DNA of 61,053 nucleotides, counting the filler, from Globobulimina sp. (Eukaryota): assembly GCA_003354225.1 (NCBI GenBank). It is 19 parts of 19 records of this genome, joined end to end, with 100 filler letters (N's around TTAATTAATTAA, not from the genome) between each part and the next. Parts side by side here need not be neighbours in the genome. Positions count along the whole stretch, not along the records: positions 41,856 to 44,973 come from PIVH01003684.1; 18 more parts are not named here. The stretch is one strand, 5' to 3'. Each line of letters starts with the position of its first letter. Position 1 is the stretch's first letter. The notes under the pieces are model-generated. The model saw only the letters and a program-made list of their open reading frames with translations, was not told the origin of the DNA and did no database searches. This document shows positions 3,123 through 61,053 of this stretch, piece by piece. A program made the position numbers and the translations under genes.

Positions 3123-3222
3123 NNNNNNNNNNNNNNNNNNNNNNNNNNNNNNNNNNNNNNNNNNNNTTAATTAATTAANNNNNNNNNNNNNNNNNNNNNN
3201 NNNNNNNNNNNNNNNNNNNNNN
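3123..3222. other. Artificial contig linker (first of 18)
   Basis: 100-nt N-run/TTAATTAATTAA/N-run with stops in all frames. It recurs at 6345-6444, 9566-9665, 12786-12885, 16006-16105, 19226-19325, 22445-22544, 25664-25763, 28883-28982, 32102-32201, 35320-35419, 38538-38637, 41756-41855, 44974-45073, 48191-48290, 51408-51507, 54624-54723 and 57839-57938. The intervening contigs shrink steadily from 3122 to 3115 bp. Confidence 0.99.
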
Positions 3223-22544: not shown

Positions 22545-25500
22545 ACTCGTTGGGTGGCAACTCGTGCACGTTGATGATTGCCTGCGTGTCGCCGGCGAGG
22601 AGCAACATGTTGGAGACCAAGAACACGCTCAACTACGCGAATCGGGCCAAGAACATCAAGAATAAGGCAGTGGTGAACCGGGACCCGCGCAGCAGACAGA
22701 TCTTGGAGTTGAGGGAACGCGTAAAACAGTTAGAGAGGCAGTTGAAGCATGGCGGCAATATTGGCGGCGGTGAGGGCGGGAAGGAGGTGTTGCGCGATCA
22801 CGGTGATACTGCGAATGACGACATATTCCAGCAACAGATTGAGCAAATCAGTCAGTTGCAGGTGGATTTGGGTGATAGTAACAATGAGATGGTGAAGCTG
22901 CAGGAAAAGATTAAGAATCTGCGGCTGAATTTGAGTGAGCTGCAAGATAAGTATTACAATGAAGTGGGCAGTGCCAAGGCCGGCTTGTCGCTGGAAAAGA
23001 GGAAGAGGCTGCAACTGATCGAGTGGGTGAAGGGCAAATACGGTGAGGTCGATGCCGAGATCGGTGAGTTCAGCGTCGACGACGAGAAAGAGATCAAGGA
23101 GCAATGTATGGTGATGGAACGGTTGAAATTGGAAAACAATGCGTTGAAGAATAACAACGAGGCGTTGCAGAAAACAATTATGCGGAATGAATATGGGAAT
23201 CAGCAGCTTGTGCACAATTTGCATGATCAAGTCGCAAAGTTGAGTTGCTACCTTTTTTTATGTTTCTCTTCCCGGCAAATTATCAACGTTGAGACTTGAA
23301 ATTAAATCCAAATGCAATGATTTTTGTTTTGTTAAACAATACAAAATTCGTAGCATTTGGATTTCAAATTAAATGATTTCAAATTCCGAAGTGGTTAAAA
23401 TAAAAACAAAATATTTGCATCAGATTGGTTCGTGGCGACGATATCATGAAAGATAATTTGATATCACCCACAAAGCGGTTTGATATAACTTCACCAGCAA
23501 AGAGGTTTGGCATTGATCAGAATCGTATTTCTGAATTAAGCGTACATTCAGGCAGCAAAAACCTGATATTATTGACAGACGACGATGATGACGACGACGA
23601 AGATGAGGAAGACGATGAATACGAAGAAGAGCTGAATGACAATGATGAGAGTGATGAATGTGATGACGACGACGACGACGACGATAATGACATAGCAATG
23701 ACCGACCCAAATAAAGAAATATTAAAACAAGAAAACAAAAAGAAAGTCAAAGAGACCAACAGTGAACGCGTCAAATTGAAGGAAGAGAGGAAAATCGGCA
23801 AAGGTTTCAATAAAAAACTATTAAAGGAACAAAAGCAGCATCACAAACAAATGGCGTTCATTGAAAATGAAAAGGTGTCTCGCGAACGATCACAGAGATT
23901 AAAATCAGAGAAATATAACCGAGAAATTAACAAAACCACTCGAGATATTTCCAATTTGCAAGTTATGTTAAAATTGCTATACCAACAAAGACAAACTGAT
24001 GCCGGCAAGCAAGTGTTTTACGAAAAACAAGTTGAGTGCAATATGTATTTTTTTTTGTGATCTTGGCATTTTACTAAATTCTGTGTGAAGTTACAAAGTT
24101 TAACGCAAGAATTAGATGACGCCCATCGTGAGGGACGGCTCTACGAAGTGGAAAAATCTAAATTGAACCCGACGGACATAAAAAAGTTGCAAGCGCAGGA
24201 CGTGAAAATCGCAAATTATCAGAGTAAGGTGAAAGCGCTGCACATTCAAATCCGAAGTTACAAGGACAAATTGGGGCAAATCCGCAAATTAGAAGCGATG
24301 CACCGAGAAGATATGCTAAAAATGAATCAAATGACGCGCAAATTGTCCGATTTGAAGAAGAAAAAAGTGAATTTACAGCGCAAATTGAAAGAAGAGAACA
24401 AAGGCTATGTCCGCTGGAAACAGCACACTGAGAAAACCATCAAACAATTACGCAAAATCCAACGCGAGAAAACCATCCAATTGCAGCGAAACAAAACTGC
24501 CTTAACTAAAACCGCCAACGCCTTGAAACAAAAGACTTTGGCTTTGATAAACTTGAAAAAAAAACAACGCGACATGGAATTGAAAAAAACCAAAAACCGA
24601 ATACAAAATAAAAGAAGAGGTTTGGTTTTTTTTTTTTATATTTTGCATCGGCAACCAATCGGAATATTTTTTTTATTTTGCGCCAACCAATCAAATTTTT
24701 TATTTTTTTTTAAAGGCCGGAACCTGAGAAATCGTGGCGGTGGAAATGTGAAACAAATAAAAAACAAAATTGCAAAATTGTTGAGCTCACTCATTGTGAA
24801 ACATCAATTATTTCATAAATACAAATTATTTGATCGCGAATATAAATCATTGCAGCACGAACTGAGAGAGTACGAGATCGGTTTGAAAAACACCAACATT
24901 GTCTTGAATCAATTGAATATGACTCAGAACAACGAAGACGAGCAAGAGATTAATGGCCTAAACGCGGAAAACCTGGAATATGAGCAACGTATCGAAGATA
25001 CGCAGAGTACCATCAAATATATCCGCGAGCAAATGATTGCAATGAGCTACAAAATGAAGGAGAACGACCATAAACGTTGGAAGCAGCTGCAAAATGCACA
25101 GAAAGTGAGCCTAAGCTGCACTGAAAGCGATTTGGAGCGATTCCTGACGATCTCCACTGTGCCGTACGCCAAGATGTGTGTCAATTTCTTGATAAATCAA
25201 CATTTGCGCTTTCGACTAATTATTGATGACTATAAGAAGCAAACTATTCATCTCAAATCGGAACAAAATAAGATTTTGACTGCTGCCGACAATGAGATGC
25301 GCAAAAAAATGGTCTTAATTGAAAAATTGCAGAGTCGCATCCACGAAGAACAACAAAAGCGGCGGTTTGAGCAATTCAAGGAAGCGACCGATACCATCCA
25401 CGATATACACCAACAGCATCACGACAACAATAAGGATAATCAGATGATGGTCGACAATGACACAGACAACGAGACGGATAATGATATCGACGAAGATTTG

Positions 25501-25663
25501 GACATTAACGATAATAATAATGAAGTAATTCCGTTTGATTTACAGGATGAAGCTTCCTTAGATTTGCAGGCGGATTTACGGCGGAAACGAACTGAACTCA
25601 ATGAAAGTAAAAAGTTATTAAATATGTTTTGCTCGCCACAGCAGACACTTTTCACTGACCAGA
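22545..25663 (+). CDS. Kinesin-4 family (KIF4/KIF21/KIF27-like) motor C-terminus and coiled-coil stalk, multi-exon, partial
   Basis: [41 protein letters not shown] followed by long coiled coils. Introns lie near 23240-23424, 24030-24090 and 24620-24714. Confidence 0.9.
23304..23364. repeat. Imperfect 61-bp palindrome inside kinesin intron
   Basis: The 30-nt arms AAATCCAAATGCAATGATTTTTGTTTTGTT and AACAATACAAAATTCGTAGCATTTGGATTT are reverse complements with 4 mismatches. Confidence 0.85.
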
Positions 25664-26233
25664 NNNNNNNNNNNNNNNNNNNNNNNNNNNNNNNNNNNNN
25701 NNNNNNNTTAATTAATTAANNNNNNNNNNNNNNNNNNNNNNNNNNNNNNNNNNNNNNNNNNNNCCAGTGCCCCAATAAGCCTCTTTCTTTTGTAATAAAT
25801 TATTATTCCTAATGATTTCCATTGCTCCCAAATATTTGTGCGTTGGGAAATGAATGAAATGTAAAGTCCCATTCGATAATTTTATTTCGAGTTTTTTATC
25901 TCTGATACCAGTCGTTCCATATTTTAGTTTTGATTTTAGTAAACAAATTTTGTTTTTGTCATATTGATTCCAATTATGTGTCTTATCTGGTTCAAAGACA
26001 CATATTTTCGCTAAAGAGCCACCTTTTGAGCATCCACACACTTTTAGCAGCATAGAACAATACGCAGATACCAGACAAACCTATATCTAATCCAAAACTT
26101 ACTTGTGAAGCCAATATGTTTGAGTTTGACATGATTTGTTTAAAATAAATGCATTATTGAATCGTAAAACTCCGGGGCCGCTAAAATATTTAGATTTATT
26201 TAAGAAATTTTTGTCGTTTAATAATATATTGAT

Positions 26234-27499: not shown

Positions 27500-28882
27500 C
27501 TAGAGAGTAATAATGTTTTGATAAAGCAATATGTTGAGAACAATAAATATTACATAAAACATTATAGAAATATATCCAAATATTGTTGTGAATTTCCATT
27601 TATTAACGGCAACAAATATAATACAGAATATCAATTGAAACAAGACAGTAATACAAGATATACAAACATTTGCAGTATTTGGTAAATTATCTTTATGATT
27701 TTCTGAATATAATGTATGCACAGCAGTACCGACGCCAATACTAATCAATAAATTCAATGTAGGTGTTGCAATGGCAGCAGATATGCCCATTGTAGCATAA
27801 CCACGTTTTGATACTGATATATCAGCAATCATATCACCGATACTATTACCCAATGCCAAAACTGTTAAACCTAACAATGTCAAACCAATATTTAATACCA
27901 CACCTAATGTAGTTAATATATTTACCAATTCATTTGCAATAAATGCAATCATTGAAATACTACAAAAAAATCCCAAAACCACAAAATATATTTTAAATAC
28001 CGCTTTTTTTCTAACATCATCAGTATATTCATCATCGATAGCATCTTTTTGACATTTTAATTTGTAATTAATCGATGTATTGTTTATATGTGAAACGTGT
28101 GTTGCAGAAACTATTGCGGAATGAATAGACGTTGTAATAGAAGGTTTGCGGCTGTGATTATCCATATCGCTGTAATTAATTGGTACATTGTGTATATTTT
28201 TATATTTTAATTTTATTTTGTAATATGTTAAACAACTCATAAATAATCCAAATACTAAAATGAATACAATGAGTGGGAAGTTTATGTGACCAAAATTAAG
28301 ACAAACACGAATTAAACCAAAACTATACTGCATAAATATTGGTGCAGTGGTGCATGATATTATTGCTTTCCAATCATCCCAGTTTTGAACATCAGTCAAT
28401 GGGATAATATATTTGCACAAAAAATCAAGTAAAATGGTTGGAATACGCACAATATATATTATTATTGTAACAATCCGTTTCCATGCAGTTATCCTGTTAT
28501 GTTCAAACGACGATATTGTTTGAGACATCTCTGCTGCTTCGAAACTGCTTATTGCTGTTTCAAATTCATTGCTTTTTGTAATCGGTGATACGGAGCATTC
28601 CACACTTTCATTCAATGCATTGTGCATGGAATCAGTTGACAAAACATTTAAAGCCGCTAATAATGAATTGCTTAACTTTCTGGCTTTCGTATTGTCGACA
28701 GCATCATGGCATTTATTTTTATTTTTTAATTTCTTATGAAATTCATCAAATAACACGGCTACAACATAACAAATATACATTACAATCATTCCAATCGAAC
28801 CATAGACTGTAACAATACCATTACTTTTACACATACAGAATTTGAACAGGAGAACATCAACAAATAGAAACTATAAACGTAC
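27500..28882 (-). CDS. Cation/Ca2+ exchanger (CCX/NCLX-like), 5' partial
   Basis: Alpha-2 repeat LGLTVLALGNSIGDMIAD...MGISA; multiple TMs; ANELV. Confidence 0.9.
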
Positions 28883-42147: not shown

Positions 42148-44973
42148 ATGGCGGAGGCAAAAGACAACTCTCACACTGATAATCACGAAACAATAAAGAA
42201 TGTGGAGAATGAGCTTAAGGACCTGAGGCGACAGTTACATAAGGTATGCTGGTATCCATTGCCTAAAGAAGAAAAGCCAATATTTTAGATTACTGTATAG
42301 ATTGAAGAACAAATCCGAGGAAAAAGCGCAGAATTATCAACAGTGTTGGCACGATCAGTATCGATCGCTGATATTGATGAAATTTTAGATATGTCCCATG
42401 ATACCAGCGATGCATCGATAACATCCTCGTTATCAATGGACGCAATGGAACGAAAAGATAGCACAGATATCGATAATGAGAGTACAGATACAATGTCTCC
42501 AACATCTAAAACAATCAAATCGTCCAAGAAAAAAAAGAAAAAAAAAGGTGCTGATAAAAAACGAAAAGCAACTGCATTGTGGAAAGAATTAGAAAAACAA
42601 ATTAAGGACGGAAATATGGAGTATGTTAAGAAATTAATACAATTAAATAAAGTAAAAATAAGTGACAATACGCAATGTAATGGAAGGACCATTTTGATGA
42701 TGGCAGCAGAACACGGCCAATATGATATTTGTTGCATGGTAATTAATTTAGGCGCAGATGTTACAATGACTACAAAATACGACTCAACTCGCGATGCTTC
42801 CTACTTTGCCAACAAATCACGCCATTATCATATCGAACGACTATTATTAATATCATCATTTGGCGGCGAATCCAGCGCAAAAATTAATGAAATCATTGAG
42901 AAATTAAAAAAACAGCAAGCTCTCAACCAAGATTTTATTCGCGTTGTTATTGAAGAAAAATCAGATGAATCTGCTGGTGATCGCGAGGTATGGATTAAGC
43001 AAATCACTCAATATTTATGTGGTTTGATACAGAAAAAAATGGTATTCAGTGACGATATGCTCAGTTTGTGTTGGAATTACACAGTTTATAATAATAAAGA
43101 TAAGGCTTTAAGCAGCTATTTATGGACAACGATAATGCAAAGTTGTAAGGAAGTCATTCAAAGTAAAGATTCGAACAATTGGTATTGGTTTAAACAATAT
43201 ATGTTAAAATCAACCATATGGTTGCAACCACTCCCTTTATATGCTACCTTCGAAGGAATAAATGGTATTAATGATGGTAACGATAATAATCAATTATCTT
43301 TGAATGATCTATTAATTCAACAATTATTTGACATTACAAACACTCAGTCAATGCAAAACAGCACCAAATTAAAAGCAATGGAGAAGAAATTTAATACAGA
43401 TTGGAAAGCTTTGATTAATTTTGATATTCAAACACGTTATGGTTTGCAGCCGAGACAGGATGATATTTTTAATGGTTTGGTTGCAAAATATAGTAAACAA
43501 GAATTGTCACAAAATATAAACCCGTCGACAACGTTTAATGCTCTTAAACATTATGATATTCATCAATATTTACCCAAACTAATATTAGTGTGTCATATGA
43601 TTGACGATGAATTTCAACAATGTATTATGAATATATTTGATATAAACTCTGCCACAAATACCAATGTTTCTAGTTTTTATAGCAAGGATGTGGAAGATTC
43701 AGATGATGAGAAAAACTTAATTCGATATCGACGGGGTCCACTTAAACAAATATCGAGATGTAAAGTTAAGGCTGAAAATGACTATCAAACAATGAAATTT
43801 CCCACTTCTGCGCATTTATTAGATGTGGTGCGGTGTACTTTGATATTTCAAGATGTCGATGGTTTGTTAAAATCGTTGCGAGAATTTGAGGGTAAAGTGA
43901 ATAAGAACAAATGTGGTGTTATTCAAGAAATAGTTCGATGTAAGAATGGTTTCGTAGATTGGAATGGCGACGCACCAAATTATGCAGATATAAAATTAAA
44001 TGTATTAATACAAACTGATAAATATTATGCAGTGATTGGTGAGATACAATTTTTATTGAAGGATATGAGCATTTTTAAATTGAGAGCTCATAAGTTATAC
44101 AGTGTCAGTCGTTTAGATGAGGAATATTTGTCATTATTAAAAATAAAAGAAATAATGATGGATCATTCAAAATGTTTATTAAATGCATCCTTTTTTAACG
44201 ATTCAAAACAGATTTCAAATGTAATGGTTGTACATCAAAAAGATATTAAATTCATTCAAGAAAATATTGATTTACAAAGAATTTGTCAAACGAAAGGATT
44301 TAAATTGTTAAGAATGTTAAAACAATATATGGATAGCGATGAATTGATAATTAAATTAAAAGCATGCGGTGCATTTCAAATAGTTTGCAGCAGAGGTTAT
44401 ATTGATATGATTCAATATATTTATTTACAAATATTGACATCAAAAACAAACAAATATGATGATATGTTACGGAATGGTTTAGCTGAAGTAATAAATGAAG
44501 GGCATTTTGAAATATTGACATGGATGTTTACTGAGAATAAGAAACATAAAGATTTTAAGTTTCTGAAATTATGGAATCAATTTGAGACTGCGGATAAGTA
44601 TACGTTTTTTAGGAGAGTTTGTGAATTGGGCAAAACAAATTGTGCTAAATTATTATTAAGACATTTTGGTGCTTTGTTTGATCCAAATGATCAAAGTAAG
44701 GGTGGATACTGTGCATTGATGAAGGCTGTTCGTAAAAAACGAATTGAAACCGTAAAATGGTTGGCTACCTTAAAATATATTGATTTATTTTCTGAAAATG
44801 CCAAGAAAGGAAGAATTTGTTTGTTCGAAGCTATTGATGTCGGTTGTTTTCAAATTGCTGATATATTATTATCTCAATACAAAAAACAAGGTAGAGATCC
44901 AAAAGAAATGTTAATGTATAAAGCATCATTTGGGCATACAATACAGATTTTTGTTAAGACGGCGGGCTGGAAA
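42148..44973 (+). CDS. Ankyrin-repeat protein with central RelA/SpoT-like nucleotidyl/pyrophospho-transferase domain (3' partial)
   Basis: Intron 42244-42300; ankyrins GRTILMMAAEHGQ..GAD and GYCALMKAV; central GPLKQISRCKVK, LLDVVRCT, NYADIK, GEIQF, AHKLY. Confidence 0.75.
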
Positions 44974-53207: not shown

Positions 53208-54623
53208 TTATAATGTTTGATGCAACATGTTTTTCTTGAAAGTTTGGGCTAAAATTATGGGTTTTTGCAGGCTTTCATATCGTTGTTTGTATTGATCTAG
53301 TTTTTGTTGATTGGCTTTTAAATTATTCCTCGTTTCTTGGAAATCTATCACTAACACATCATTTCCAACAAATCCTTGTTTTTGTTTTAATTTTGTATTT
53401 TTATATCGTAGCGAATCACGTTTCTTCTTCAATTCATTCAATTCGTCTCTTTTTGTGTTAACTACATTATCTAAAAACGTTTGCTTTTCCGATAATTGGT
53501 GATTTATTTTATTAATAAATTGCAATTTTTCTTTAATGTGAGTTAATATCTGCACTGTGTTTGTGATTTTCTTTTTTAATTTATATAATTCGTCATTTCG
53601 TTCTTCAATTTTTTCATTCAATGTTTGATTCTCAATTTTTAATTGTTCAAAATCAATTAAATGCAATCCATCACTTAATTTGTCTTTTTCTTTTATTTTT
53701 TGTGTCAACTTTTTTAAACTAATATTATAATGAATATTTTTTAATCGTTCTTGTTCAATTTCATTATCAATTTCCTCCTCTTCCTCCTCTTTCTGTAATA
53801 TCCATTTTGGTTCAATTTTGCTTGAATTTCCTGATTTTTTAGTCACGTTTTTACATATTTTACGTTTGAAGTTTTTGTATGTATCTTTTAAGCTAATTGC
53901 GTTTTCGTCATTTTCTATGACGCAGTCCTTTAAATTTACAATTCGCTCATTATAATGTTTCTGTTTTGTGCTATATTCGATATGCAAATATTCAACTTCT
54001 TTTAATATAGTTTCGTATAATTCATTCTGTTTTGATTCCATGTTTGATGAAGTTGCTATTAAATTCATTGTTGATGGAACCTCAACACCCAAACCCAACG
54101 AATTATTATTTTTATGTACAATGCCGATCACTTGCTTTAATAAATGATAATTATATGATCGCAAATCCATTGATTCCTTCTTGGCTTCACACACTAATAA
54201 AGATAACTTATTTTCTCTTTCAATTCGCTCTAATTCCACTTCGTCAATTTCTTCCTCCTCTTCTTTATCATTTATTGTTTGTTCTATTGTTTGTGTCATA
54301 TTTGGCTGACTTTGGTTTGATTGGTTGTCATTATTATTTTCAGTAATCTCTGTTTCTTCAGTTTCGTCAACATTATCTTCCGCATTTTCTGGTTCAATTT
54401 CTGCTTTTTTCGTCTGTTCTGTATTTTGTTCATCAGCTTTTATTTCGGATTCTTGTGTCGCAGTTTCTGTTTCTGGCACAAGTTGTTGTTCATTTTTATT
54501 TTCTTGATTCGGCTTTTCCTTTTCGTTAATTTGAGTATCTTTGTTGCTGATTACATGATTCTCTATTTTTGTTTCTTCAATTTGAGGAGGAACAGTTATT
54601 TGAATTGCTTTTTCTTCCTTTTT
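53208..54623 (-). CDS. CCDC96/CFAP184-like ciliary coiled-coil protein
   Basis: GLHLIDFEQLKIENQTLNEKIEERNDEL..TVQILTHIKEKL; 5' end uncertain. Confidence 0.85.
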   Translation of the reverse strand, partial: KKEEKAIQITVPPQIEETKIENHVISNKDTQINEKEKPNQENKNEQQLVPETETATQESEIKADEQNTEQTKKAEIEPENAEDNVDETEETEITENNNDNQSNQSQPNMTQTIEQTINDKEEEEEIDEVELERIERENKLSLLVCEAKKESMDLRSYNYHLLKQVIGIVHKNNNSLGLGVEVPSTMNLIATSSNMESKQNELYETILKEVEYLHIEYSTKQKHYNERIVNLKDCVIENDENAISLKDTYKNFKRKICKNVTKKSGNSSKIEPKWILQKEEEEEEIDNEIEQERLKNIHYNISLKKLTQKIKEKDKLSDGLHLIDFEQLKIENQTLNEKIEERNDELYKLKKKITNTVQILTHIKEKLQFINKINHQLSEKQTFLDNVVNTKRDELNELKKKRDSLRYKNTKLKQKQGFVGNDVLVIDFQETRNNLKANQQKLDQYKQRYESLQKPIILAQTFKKNMLHQTL

Positions 54624-54723
54624 NNNNNNNNNNNNNNNNNNNNNNNNNNNNNNNNNNNNNNNNNNNNTTAATTAATTAANNNNNNNNNNNNNNNNNNNNN
54701 NNNNNNNNNNNNNNNNNNNNNNN

Positions 54724-58231: not shown

Positions 58232-60958
58232 TTATTTATTATTATTAGCAGTAGTGATTTGTGCAGCGAGTTGAAATTCTTTTTGCATGTTATTCCAAGT
58301 GACGTCAGTCACTCTTCTCCCGATATTATCAGTATTATCCAATGGATCCAATACAATTAAAATATTATTATGGTTATTTTGCAAATGACATAGATTTTTA
58401 TTCAAAAAACCATTGATTTTATTTTTCCGTATATTATGCGTAATGGATATTGCATGTATTTCTGGTTTAAACTCCTTATGAAAATACGTAAAAAACCCAC
58501 TGAACAATTCACCAATGTTATGTTTATTTTTTTGTCCAAAACTTACAAATTTCTCAGGTTTAACCCAATCTGGTTCATAATCTTTGTTCTTGTTGATTTC
58601 ATTCATATTTATTTGTAAAATGGGTAAAATCGGAGACTGTAAATGTTGTAAATAGTGTATAATCATTAAGGTGAAACCAAATGAATTTAAATCGCCTCTA
58701 TGCGTATTATTCAATTTCCTGGTTTTGACCCAATGTTTTATGGCCAATACCAAAGGTTTCACCCTCCAATCAATGGACACATATTTCTTAATCAATTTTG
58801 TTTTTATCACTGACTGCGTTAAACACACCGAAATATCCGATTGTAATCCATTATTTTCATCCGTTAACTTAACAATTGGCACCGTCGCATGTTCCAAGAA
58901 TATCACTTTAAAATGCGGCACTTTTACAATTTCCTCGTAAATCGGTTTCAATATTCTTTGAATGCGATGTTGTTTCACTTCGACGGTCAAATCCACGCTC
59001 TCATTATGTTTAAAATAATTATCAAATGATAATATATTATCGGCAGACAAATGTATAGAAATATCCAAATCTGATTCAATGTGATCCAATTTGGTCGCCA
59101 TGGAGCCAAATATTTCATATCTCGCATTGTGGCCATGTACTTTGATTAAAATATCTTTCAATTGCTTCAATAAACGATACCGTTGGAATATAATCTCATC
59201 CGTTGGCTGTTTAGTCAATGCTAAGCATAATACGCTTTTCATCAAACCATTATATTTCTTCTTTTTGCGAATGATTTTGTTTATTTCGTCTCGCAGCGAT
59301 AAGCCTCGATGGAAAAAGAAATCGCTGTCTGAGATATGAGAACAAGTCGAATATATCGGATAAAAACGAATATTTAATCGATAGGAGCCATCGCAGATGT
59401 TTTTATCTTGTAATATCTCATCAGAAACTATAGAAACACTGCCATCTAAGCCCAACTCGCTGTTATTTATTACGTTTGCTACGTCCACGCCAATCATCAA
59501 ACGGCTGTAATTATAGCCATCGCGCACTTCGTCATCACTCGCCGTCGCCGCAGAGGAAGATAACACATACAAAATATCAAAGTGTCGCTTGCCTAAAATG
59601 TTGACGATATTTGCTATGGTTTCTTTGACGTAGTCGCGATATGCGCCATTTATGTCATCTGCATAGCGCTTATCATCCACAAAATACTTGCAATTCAATA
59701 CGCGAATATGAAAGATATATTTGTTGGATAAATATTTATTTTTGTTTTTATTTTTAATGTTAACGTTTTTCTCATCGTTGACGCTTTCTTTCTTTTCGTC
59801 CGCCATATTCAGATTCATATTGACATTCTCGTCATGATGATTGATATTATAATTATTGTACTGATGATTGCTGATTCGATCTATAAATACCTGCAATAAC
59901 TGGACCACCAAATGGTGCGTCAATTTGTTATCAGCAACATCGGCCAGAATGGATTTGAATAACTGAATGCATTCTGTCTTTTGCTTACATTTACAACATT
60001 CCTCGCTCAAATCGCGCACAATGTCGACAATCATACGCAAATACGACGATGTATCCGGATCCTTAGCATTGTTATGGTTGTCTTTGTCATTCGCATTCTC
60101 GTTATTTGGCCTCGACACACAAAGGGAAGTAATCGCAGCGGAGTCTAATAACAATTTGCGTAAACAAATGATAATCGCATTGAAAGTGTGCTGATCATTG
60201 TTATTTAACTCATTTTTGTGTTGTTGCAATTTCGGTTTAATTCGAATAATTTGCTGTTTTAACCAAGCAACGATATCAGATATAAACACTAATTGTTTGT
60301 TGATATCGTTTAACTCATCGCCGATGTTTATAGTCCGCACAATGGGTATCCCGCTGCGGTCATTTATGGCTAAAAAACTGTCGACGCGCAAAGCTTGATC
60401 GCCGTCACAAATATCATCATCAAAGTCCATGTCTTTTTTTTTATTCTGATTTTTGTCCATTAAGTCTTCGTTCTCATCAATAGTGAAAATGGAGTTGTTT
60501 TCATCAAAATCGGCGTCTTCTTCTTTCTGTTCCAGTAATAAGTCGTCAATGTCGTCAATAACATTGTCCTCAGTACGAGTGTGAGTGTATGTGTATGTGT
60601 ACGTGTTCAATGCGGAGGAATTGGCAGAGGAGATATTGAAGAATTTTATGCTGTTATCGTCGCTCCAAAATGCCATCCATGTCCGGTATATTCCCTGTTG
60701 GATTTTATTCAAATGAGTGCGCTGTGCGTCGTTTAGTGAGGAGAGCGTTGGCGTGATTTGGAAGATTTCAATCAACGACATGGCGATTTGCATGCGTTTG
60801 ACGATGGACTCGATGTGGTAGAATCGAGTGTATATCTTTTGGATCAGTGCGAAATCATAATAGGCGAAGTTTAAAACGATGACTTGGCGATGTTCGTCAG
60901 TCGTAATCCATTTTAGTAATTCGATGAATCGTTTTGCAAAACGGACGACTGTTCGCAT
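58232..60958 (-). CDS. Non-canonical poly(A)/terminal uridylyl transferase (Cid1/TUT/GLD2-like) with long N-extension
   Basis: FGS..SDLDI, ATVPIVK, DIS, LNSFGFTLMIIHYLQ, GELFSGFFTYF, DPLDNTDNIGR. Confidence 0.92.
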   Translation of the reverse strand: MRTVVRFAKRFIELLKWITTDEHRQVIVLNFAYYDFALIQKIYTRFYHIESIVKRMQIAMSLIEIFQITPTLSSLNDAQRTHLNKIQQGIYRTWMAFWSDDNSIKFFNISSANSSALNTYTYTYTHTRTEDNVIDDIDDLLLEQKEEDADFDENNSIFTIDENEDLMDKNQNKKKDMDFDDDICDGDQALRVDSFLAINDRSGIPIVRTINIGDELNDINKQLVFISDIVAWLKQQIIRIKPKLQQHKNELNNNDQHTFNAIIICLRKLLLDSAAITSLCVSRPNNENANDKDNHNNAKDPDTSSYLRMIVDIVRDLSEECCKCKQKTECIQLFKSILADVADNKLTHHLVVQLLQVFIDRISNHQYNNYNINHHDENVNMNLNMADEKKESVNDEKNVNIKNKNKNKYLSNKYIFHIRVLNCKYFVDDKRYADDINGAYRDYVKETIANIVNILGKRHFDILYVLSSSAATASDDEVRDGYNYSRLMIGVDVANVINNSELGLDGSVSIVSDEILQDKNICDGSYRLNIRFYPIYSTCSHISDSDFFFHRGLSLRDEINKIIRKKKKYNGLMKSVLCLALTKQPTDEIIFQRYRLLKQLKDILIKVHGHNARYEIFGSMATKLDHIESDLDISIHLSADNILSFDNYFKHNESVDLTVEVKQHRIQRILKPIYEEIVKVPHFKVIFLEHATVPIVKLTDENNGLQSDISVCLTQSVIKTKLIKKYVSIDWRVKPLVLAIKHWVKTRKLNNTHRGDLNSFGFTLMIIHYLQHLQSPILPILQINMNEINKNKDYEPDWVKPEKFVSFGQKNKHNIGELFSGFFTYFHKEFKPEIHAISITHNIRKNKINGFLNKNLCHLQNNHNNILIVLDPLDNTDNIGRRVTDVTWNNMQKEFQLAAQITTANNNK

Positions 60959-61053
60959 GTCATTCTTCCAGAAGTTTTGATAGGCGTCTTATTGCAAAAT
61001 GAGAGCATTGAGAGCTAGGAGGAAATATTTGCATATATTAAAGTGTACAGTAC

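Follow-up and report, generated by a model that had tools for sequence, protein, structure and literature searches.

A candidate Tas1-like pyrophosphokinase core in an ankyrin-repeat gene family of Foraminifera

Tas1 (Apk1), a type VI secretion system effector of Pseudomonas aeruginosa, is an adenosine 3′-pyrophosphokinase that produces pApp, ppApp and pppApp and drains ATP (PMC10083569, PMC8118318); it has the (p)ppGpp-synthetase fold (PMC8118318), and reaches the RelA, SpoT and small alarmone synthetase (SAS) proteins by iterated hidden Markov model (HMM) search (PMC10083569). The Apk2 enzymes are MuF-fused (p)ppApp synthetase toxins of temperate phages (PMC10083569, PMC12226406), and in CapRel(SJ46) and other toxSAS proteins a toxSYNTH domain is fused to a C-terminal sensor or antitoxin part and pyrophosphorylates the tRNA 3′-CCA (PMC9712102, PMC11559606). 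In eukaryotes, RelA/SpoT homologues (RSH) are known mainly as plastid proteins, with the hydrolase Mesh1 and a few odd stand-alone synthetases (PMC3153485); divergent stand-alone SAS proteins ('divRel') occur in Dictyostelium, Ascomycota and diatoms (PMC3153485), and some fungal NOD-like receptors (NLRs) have an N-terminal RelA_SpoT effector domain together with ANK, WD40 or TPR arms (PMC4986451). Here we describe a gene from Globobulimina sp. (GenBank assembly GCA_003354225.1), found in a window of 61 kb (1–61053, the whole stretch of DNA analysed), that encodes ankyrin repeats on both sides of a core that we would place on the Tas1/Apk side of the RSH superfamily.

The gene, its protein and the motifs of the core

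The window is an artificial chain of near-equal contigs of about 3.1 kb, joined by 18 linkers at steps of about 3.2 kb (at 3167, 6389, ... 57883), each a run of N's around TTAATTAATTAA; adjacent pieces therefore give no genomic context for the gene. The carrier contig (41856–44973, no strand assigned) is a single assembly contig flanked by such N/TTAATTAATTAA linkers. Exon 1 (42148–42243, + strand) consists of 32 codons from the ATG at 42148 (MAEAKDNSHTDNHETIKNVENELKDLRRQLHK) and aligns with the N-terminus of P0002, a 929-amino acid foraminiferal protein whose source is named as Nonionella stella. An intron of 57 nt with GT..AG ends, read from the sequence (42244–42300, +), separates it from exon 2 (42301–44973, +), an 891-codon open frame, P0001, that reaches the contig's last base, such that the two-exon gene is truncated by the contig end. 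Residues 15–923 of the joined protein align with P0002 residues 22–894 at 61% identity, with no interruption at the exon junction; because the alignment stops at 894 of 929, the C-terminus is short by about 35 residues. One contig of the public run X6, which derives from another organism, a close relative 95–99% alike, and whose kind is merely guessed as RNA, lacks precisely this GT..AG-bounded segment of 57 nt, and a contig of run X1 spanning 42213–42840 retains it; run X7 gave no contig over the stretch. From the splice-site ends, the alignment across the junction and the X6 contig, the intron is judged to be real, and the gene is intron-containing as a preliminary description of this DNA had claimed. 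A contig of X6 also has 9 nt fewer at 43235, in frame, inside the Asn/Asp-rich loop of the middle region, and X6 and X8 contigs extend past 44967 with loose ends that would prolong the open frame. The GC content around the gene is 0.33, similar to most of the window. No second gene was found on the contig (41856–44973), and hence no adjacent immunity gene there.

The predicted protein has a short N-terminal ankyrin module, a conserved and presumably helical region, a putative catalytic core of about 150 residues and a variable C-terminal repeat arm. Read by eye, the N-terminal sequence (MAEAKDNSHTDNHE...) is acidic in character, with no resemblance to a transit peptide. Directly before the first ankyrin module is a Ser/Lys-rich low-complexity patch (KTIKSSKKKKKKKGADKKRKA; 42508–42570, +), within which the Lys-rich run KSSKKKKKKKGADKKRK resembles a nuclear localisation signal and could equally point to the nucleus instead of the cytosol; the A-rich DNA beneath it (42522–42553) was treated as a repeat and skipped in read placement. 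The N-terminal ankyrin repeats (42595–42786, +; P0001 99–162) match Pfam Ank_4 (8.4e-11), Ank (6.2e-10) and Ank_5 (4.8e-09), and this module also matches ankyrin sequences in the PDB. To its right, a family-conserved middle region (42988–43497, +) lies outside known domains, with a mean identity to paralogues of 0.3–0.37 in parts and no match in Pfam or, by phmmer, in the PDB. The putative Tas1-like RSH-superfamily synthetase domain, assigned from profile and hhalign evidence, occupies 43498–44172 (+; P0001 400–624), and is followed by the C-terminal ankyrin-repeat region (44219–44973, +), in which Ank_2 matches three stretches (2.6e-21), the best at P0001 774–859. Ankyrin is the sole Pfam content of P0001, with no HD, TGS, ACT, PAAR, MuF, NACHT or NB-ARC domain; the preliminary description had likewise seen neither an HD domain nor a transit peptide. 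In what follows the domain is numbered 1–225 (P0001 400–624), so that P0001 positions are domain +399 and those of the full model domain +431.

All six strings quoted in the preliminary description (GPLKQISRCKVK, LLDVVRCTLIF, VRCKNGF, PNYADIKLNV, GEIQF and AHKLY) are present in P0001 in the same order (nt 43732–44103), with ankyrin on both sides as it stated. Conservation was counted over 136 aligned family domains. The Syn1-like segment, Y77-R-R-G-P-L-K83-Q-I-S-R87-C-K-V-K91 (43726–43770, +), aligns to AKAPIKSRERAMQK of Tas1; K83 and K91 are each kept in 134/136 domains and R87 in 133/136, and the family pattern R-G-P-x-K83-x-x-x-R87-x-x-x-K91-x-E-N-D-Y corresponds to K-A-P-I-K-S-R-E-R-A-M-Q-K-I-N-N-D-Y in Tas1. 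These residues appear to match the Lys and Arg that contact the ATP phosphates in RSH enzymes. The Syn2-like strand LLD109VVR112CTLIF (43816–43848, +) carries the putative catalytic Asp (D109, 136/136; R112, 134/136) and is of the R-x-T type, reading D109-x-x-R112-C-T in the family, D-L-A-R-N-T in Tas1 and D-x-x-G/A-x-R in classical RSH proteins. R147-C-K149-N150-G-F (43936–43953, +) is the counterpart of the Rel RxKD motif, with R147 in 132, K149 in 134 and N150 in all 136 of the domains. Syn4, G-E182-I-Q184-F (44038–44052, +), carries the putative catalytic Glu (E182, 134/136; Q184, 132/136) and lacks the Arg-Thr of EIQIRT; the family has G-E-I-Q-F-L, Tas1 G-E-I-Q-V-N and classical RSH proteins E-I-Q-I-R-T. 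Syn5, H198-K-L-Y201-S-V-S-R205 (44089–44112, +; H198, 132/136), has the form H-x-x-Y-x-x-x-R and may be compared with GHKYYEDWR of Tas1. In this large family no alignment columns are better conserved than those of the motif residues, and the motifs are therefore not a chance occurrence.

The acceptor loop, Syn3, departs from the characterised enzymes. Y162-A-D164-I-K166-L-N-V (43981–44004, +) is the counterpart of G-Y-x-S-x-H and of the Y-x-G-x-N of Tas1/Apk2, and has the form Y-x-D-x-K across the family (Y162, 134/136; D164 and K166, 135/136 each), as compared with G-Y-x-S-x-H in (p)ppGpp synthetases and G-Y-S-G-V-N in Tas1. Both changes, His to Lys and Ser to Asp, were located by hhalign and by aligning a Photobacterium bridge sequence (see below) to RelP. 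The catalytic Asp, Glu and Tyr and the replacement of His by Lys, correctly mapped in the preliminary description of this single gene, are general features of the family. SxH has been described as a guanosine-recognising site, with GxN in its place in the Apk enzymes (PMC12226406). Exchange of SxH and GxN inactivated Apk2 and yielded no pppGpp synthesis (PMC12226406), from which it follows that the Syn3 motif alone does not set the acceptor.

A large family and its links to the RSH superfamily

With residues 400–640 as query, 24 proteins were recovered at E≤1e-3; they are 490–1560 amino acids long, 36–73% identical, and nearly all have ankyrin repeats. A domain-only profile of eukaryote rows (A2; 15 rows, 214 positions) searched against 1.84 billion representative proteins matched 1738 clusters at E≤1e-3, 732 at ≤1e-10 and 238 at ≤1e-30. 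Exact-sequence look-up of 30 members gave an organism name for 20 (12 Nonionella stella, 7 Bolivina argentea and 1 Reticulomyxa filosa protein, the last annotated as 'hypothetical protein') and no name for 10, and a further member bears the taxon id of the genus Ammonia. All 21 organism-named members are thus from Foraminifera (4 genera). The gene therefore appears to belong to a large family, expanded in Foraminifera as far as the named members show; since these are all Foraminifera, the family leaves the metazoan question unanswered. Length-restricted homologue searches recovered only 1 and 8 short proteins, none of them Pfam-labelled.

Ankyrin repeats are the usual partner of the core in the 62 other members (48 + 14) scanned with Pfam, which gave no match to RelA_SpoT, NACHT or NB-ARC. 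Other partners are RCC1 propellers (P0084, P0093), a coronin-type WD40 (P0057), a RING (P0014) and ZZ/C1/FYVE domains (P0156), and in some paralogues these replace or supplement the C-terminal arm. Mean identity to P0001 among 30 full-length members is 0.38–0.58 in the core, 0.21–0.34 in the N-terminal ankyrin module and 0.09–0.17 in the C-terminal repeat arm, where the paralogues differ most.

The link to enzymes of known structure emerges from profiles that include non-eukaryotic relatives. Searched against the PDB, A2 gave two matches, bL21 (0.66) and Tas1 (6ox6, E=1), neither significant alone. Profile A3, with 17 eukaryote and 3 phage rows (3 phage domains and 16 short family fragments having been added), has Tas1 6ox6 as its top match among 177,635 PDB sequences (E=2.2e-4), in two colinear stretches covering Syn1–Syn2 and GEIQ; with A5 (10 eukaryote, 3 phage and 2 Photobacterium rows) the Tas1 match reaches E=2.1e-8. 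Tas1 is the only significant relative of solved structure. Among the ESM Atlas neighbours PF04607 is the sole named family (5/30, and 14/30 in a named-only search), which we regard as a lead and not as a test.

Three sets of non-eukaryotic sequences act as bridges. A scan of viral contigs revealed 11 phage or prophage records of 20–42 kb (IMG/VR; L010–L020) in which a relative lies inside a giant frame of >1500–2000 amino acids (e.g. L011 2851–3300, L016 2992–3450), and a second viral scan with profile A4 found the same contigs again. The phage domains score E=3e-12 to 5e-11 in a local hmmsearch, values that refer to a tiny database and are given only as links backed by bit scores. One of the giant frames matches an 'internal virion protein' PHROG, and none matches Pfam; in two of the phage records neither MuF (PF04233) nor RelA_SpoT (PF04607) was found, as compared with 5/14 and 12/14 control genomes. 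The absence of MuF sets these two apart from the published MuF-Apk2 toxins, and the giant proteins may represent an undescribed class of ejected phage enzymes.

A tblastn search with the phage domains led to two tandem open reading frames (ORFs) of Photobacterium and to an Azospirillum 'hypothetical protein'. The Photobacterium sp. DA100 ORFs (L030 5776–6564 and 6784–7608; NZ_CP119424.1) carry no annotation in the feature table used, have signal-peptide-like N-termini, and match positions 4–106 of the 113 in the Pfam RelA_SpoT model with E-values (4.6e-4 and 9.7e-4) that fall just short of the cut-off; one of them matches Tas1 at 2.3e-5 and RelP (6fgk) at 0.01. HopJ, DUF2750, ROF and NUDIX genes lie nearby, with no obvious immunity gene recognised among them. 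The Azospirillum oryzae plasmid protein (L032 3854–4573; WP_149198862.1, 239 amino acids) is plainly homologous to the toxin domain of Tas1 (7.5e-36 to 6ox6) and stands alone, without PAAR or MuF; a HigB/antitoxin pair is located about 3 kb from its gene.

Profile–profile comparison by hhalign joins the family to the classical enzymes through each of these bridges. The classical set consists of 9 RSH synthetase domains, namely E. coli RelA together with Rel, SpoT-like and SAS domains from phage-collection records, and all of the alignments on that side are small (9 RSH rows, 1–6 bridge rows). Through the phage domains, the leg to the family (136 rows) has P=6.9e-20 and the leg to classical RSH 4.7e-4; through the Photobacterium pair these are 2.2e-11 and 5.6e-6, through the Azospirillum Tas1 homologue 9.1e-7 and 2.6e-6, and with all six bridge sequences pooled 1e-18 and 9.1e-10. 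For five reversed-sequence decoys, P was 0.086–0.47. A maximum-likelihood tree built from 44 rows places 29 eukaryote domains, a sample of the 136, in one group (support 99/99) and the 9 classical RSH domains in another (100/99), with the six bridges on the eukaryote side. These comparisons lead us to the conclusion that the core shares ancestry with RSH synthetase domains and is best assigned to the Tas1/Apk branch of the superfamily. The preliminary description had called it a RelA/SpoT-like enzyme and had guessed at a non-GTP acceptor, as in toxSAS enzymes; the former stands as divergent membership of the superfamily, reached by way of Tas1 and the bridges and not by any direct Pfam or hhalign match, and the nearest characterised relative, Tas1, is indeed a non-GTP enzyme.

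Several results weigh against this placement or against an enzymatic function built upon it. The centre alone has no Pfam match at E≤10, and RelA_SpoT is not found in the whole protein at E≤1; the curated PF04607 cut-off of 27 bits is not reached by P0001. The only NCBIfam match, to MzaA, is driven by ankyrin and leaves the centre unrecognised, and PADLOC matches are weak or likewise ankyrin-driven (PDC-M24B at 0.0087; PDC-M72A on the ankyrin part). A phmmer search of the centre against the PDB gave chance-level matches only (TBK1, 0.47; a decapping nuclease, 0.56). Direct hhalign comparison of the 136-row family with the 9 classical RSH domains is not significant (P=0.13, Prob 0.5%; P=0.85 in global mode), and the five Syn motifs are colinear with those of classical RSH only under a permissive setting. 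The tree has long branches and its joins are possibly false. Within the motifs, the Arg of EIQxRT is not kept in the family, and the Y-x-D-x-K acceptor loop is a fit to neither the guanosine (SxH) nor the adenosine (GxN) type, and for this reason the product cannot be inferred from the motif. The taxonomic range rests on the 21 named members, and no sequencing run recorded as RNA carries the gene.

Proposed function and alternative explanations

The explanation that we favour, with a probability of about 0.62, is that the gene encodes an active Tas1-like 3′-pyrophosphokinase under ankyrin control, one of a large foraminiferal family with a divergent RSH core on the Tas1/Apk side. In such an enzyme, K83, R87 and K91 of Syn1 would bind the phosphates of the donor ATP, D109 and E182 would hold Mg2+, and the β-γ pyrophosphate would move from ATP to the 3′-OH of an acceptor stacked on Y162. 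Our first guess for the acceptor would be an adenosine nucleotide, with formation of (p)ppApp and drainage of ATP, since the core is related to Tas1 and its Syn2 and Syn4 follow the Apk pattern. An RNA 3′ end, by analogy with FaRel2, PhRel2 and CapRel (PMC11559606, PMC9712102), would come second, and guanosine nucleotides would rank last. The ankyrin arms would most likely restrain or aim the enzyme, with the variable C-terminal arm as a possible recognition part.

A housekeeping (p)ppGpp synthetase of a classical stringent-type response, with ankyrin merely for cellular placement, would agree with the RSH superfamily membership and with the divergent stand-alone synthetases recorded in Dictyostelium, Ascomycota and diatoms (PMC3153485). 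We consider it improbable, given that the guanosine-recognising S-x-H is replaced by D-x-K in 135/136 domains, that Syn2 and Syn4 follow the Tas1 pattern and the family groups in the tree with Tas1-like sequences and not with Rel/SAS, and that hundreds of paralogues with variable arms are unlike a single housekeeping enzyme. The same loop, together with the invariant N150 and N168, has no counterpart in characterised RSH enzymes and might reflect another chemistry on the same fold, either a nucleotidyl or phosphoryl transfer or an action on a non-nucleotide substrate; however, the donor-side residues are all kept (K/R/K of Syn1, Asp of Syn2, Glu-x-Gln of Syn4, H-x-x-Y of Syn5), which makes such a departure unlikely.

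A pseudo-enzyme, whose core only binds a nucleotide or a partner as a scaffold in an ankyrin protein, would explain why E182 is K or C in 2/136 domains and K83 is altered in 2/136, but seems quite improbable where metal-binding acids and phosphate-binding basic residues are near-totally conserved among 136 divergent paralogues and the window copy retains all of the catalytic residues. Outside the eukaryotes, the closest relatives are proteins of phages and bacteria, as would be expected if the sequence were a bacterial or phage contaminant or a dead transfer and not a protist gene. This explanation is scarcely credible for a gene in which excision of a GT..AG intron, missing from one contig of another run, re-establishes the reading frame, and which has ankyrin flanks, an intact frame of 891 codons, 61% identity end to end to a foraminiferal protein, and the GC content (0.33) of other window pieces. 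Moreover, the window core has no tblastn match in the phage and plasmid collections, and among 185,579 genomes of prokaryote species, scanned with A2 and with a phage domain, there were 25 and 64 pattern matches, none of which was confirmed.

With this placement, the toxin-type (Tas1/Apk) branch of the RSH superfamily is represented in a major protist phylum by a large, strongly conserved and intron-bearing gene family, invisible to Pfam and with a new type of acceptor loop. The family is also a concrete candidate for cytoplasmic 3′-pyrophosphorylated nucleotide (or RNA) chemistry in a eukaryote and probably an instance of a eukaryote having adopted a weapon domain from bacteria or phages, and the alignment provides a seed for seeking similar hidden members elsewhere. 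We further speculate, as a doubtful extension by analogy, that the family could form an innate-immunity-like repertoire of Foraminifera, in which variable repeat arms (ankyrin, RCC1, WD40) would detect invaders or damage and set free a pyrophosphokinase of Tas1 ancestry. That enzyme would shut down the affected cytoplasm through a (p)ppApp-type ATP drain or an RNA 3′-end block, and its domain would probably have been captured from a phage or bacterial toxin. If true, abortive infection by bacterial toxSAS enzymes would have a counterpart in eukaryotes, and this would be the first eukaryotic adenosine-alarmone system.

The other contigs of the window hold ordinary eukaryotic genes, including Pfam matches to RING and MYND fingers. 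Among them are an MTPAP-like poly(A) polymerase palm domain (58232–60988, − strand; Pfam 1.6e-17), a CCDC113/CCDC96 coiled coil of a cilium-associated family (53208–54629, −; Pfam 2.5e-37), and, as Pfam matches in long open frames, a KIF21A-like domain (24061–25680, +) and a Na/Ca exchanger (27500–28870, −). Several further window frames of 350–600 amino acids have zero Pfam matches.

Comparison with described RSH-type systems

Full-text literature searches that took in eukaryotes, Foraminifera, protists, Rhizaria and amoebae gave no description of this family among the matches listed. Searches combining RelA/SpoT, ankyrin, eukaryote and alarmone returned articles on Legionella only, and the Tas1/ppApp articles are bacterial by title among the matches listed. 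'Ankyrin' and 'protist' have 0 occurrences in the RSH survey (PMC3153485). These negatives apply to article text, and Dataset S1 of PMC10083569, with 5,241 Tas1 relatives, could include eukaryotes.

Among characterised enzymes, the family most closely resembles Tas1. Common to both are P-x-K-x-x-E-R-A-x-x-K-x-x-N-D-Y in Syn1, D-x-x-R-x-T in Syn2, G-E-I-Q without Arg-Thr in Syn4 and H-x-x-Y-x-x-x-R in Syn5. Tas1, however, is a bacterial toxin that has a PAAR domain for delivery and comes with an immunity gene (PMC10083569), whereas the foraminiferal core is found between ankyrin repeats in a eukaryotic, intron-bearing gene; the two also differ in Syn3 (Y-x-D-x-K as opposed to Y-S-G-V-N) and in the segment preceding it (R-x-K-N-G-F as opposed to K-V-I-D-G). 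Measured against the Apk signatures (R-x-T, G-x-N, and a Syn4 that is not I-R; PMC12226406), Syn2 with R112-C-T/S and Syn4 with F-L fit, and Syn3 with D-x-K does not. Apk2 is likewise a phage-borne Tas1-like module, as are the family's closest non-eukaryotic relatives, but the latter lie mid-protein in giant frames and the GxN signature is absent.

The resemblance to RelP, RelQ and the synthetase domains of Rel, RelA and SpoT (PF04607) is more distant, with membership of the same superfamily reached by transitive profiles and an unchanged order of the five Syn motifs. The family differs from them in having no direct Pfam or hhalign match and in the replacement of SxH by DxK, RxKD by RxKN and EIQIRT by EIQFLL, and the foraminiferal protein has no HD, TGS or ACT domain. 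The divRel proteins are also eukaryotic, synthetase-only RSH without a plastid role; unlike the foraminiferal family they were found by RSH HMMs, and the two are compared here by description (PMC3153485).

Other parallels concern the layout. CapRel combines an RSH-type effector and a poorly conserved C-terminal part in one polypeptide, as the foraminiferal protein appears to do, and the model of regulation suggested above is borrowed from it by analogy; the arm, though, is ankyrin (RCC1 or WD40 in paralogues) and not a pseudo-zinc-finger, and the likeness is one of layout only. In the fungal NLRs, too, repeat arms are joined to an RSH-type domain of a eukaryote, cytoplasmic there and presumably so here, and the proteins form an expanded and variable group; the NLRs have NACHT or NB-ARC domains and match PF04607 (PMC4986451), whereas the foraminiferal family has neither. 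The sensor–effector look common to fused CapRel and the fungal NLRs would be read as a resemblance only. Because it is related to Tas1, but has no delivery domain or immunity gene, no GxN and no Pfam match to the core, the foraminiferal family is best regarded as a distinct variant of the RSH superfamily and not as a member of Apk1, Apk2 or the SAS proteins.

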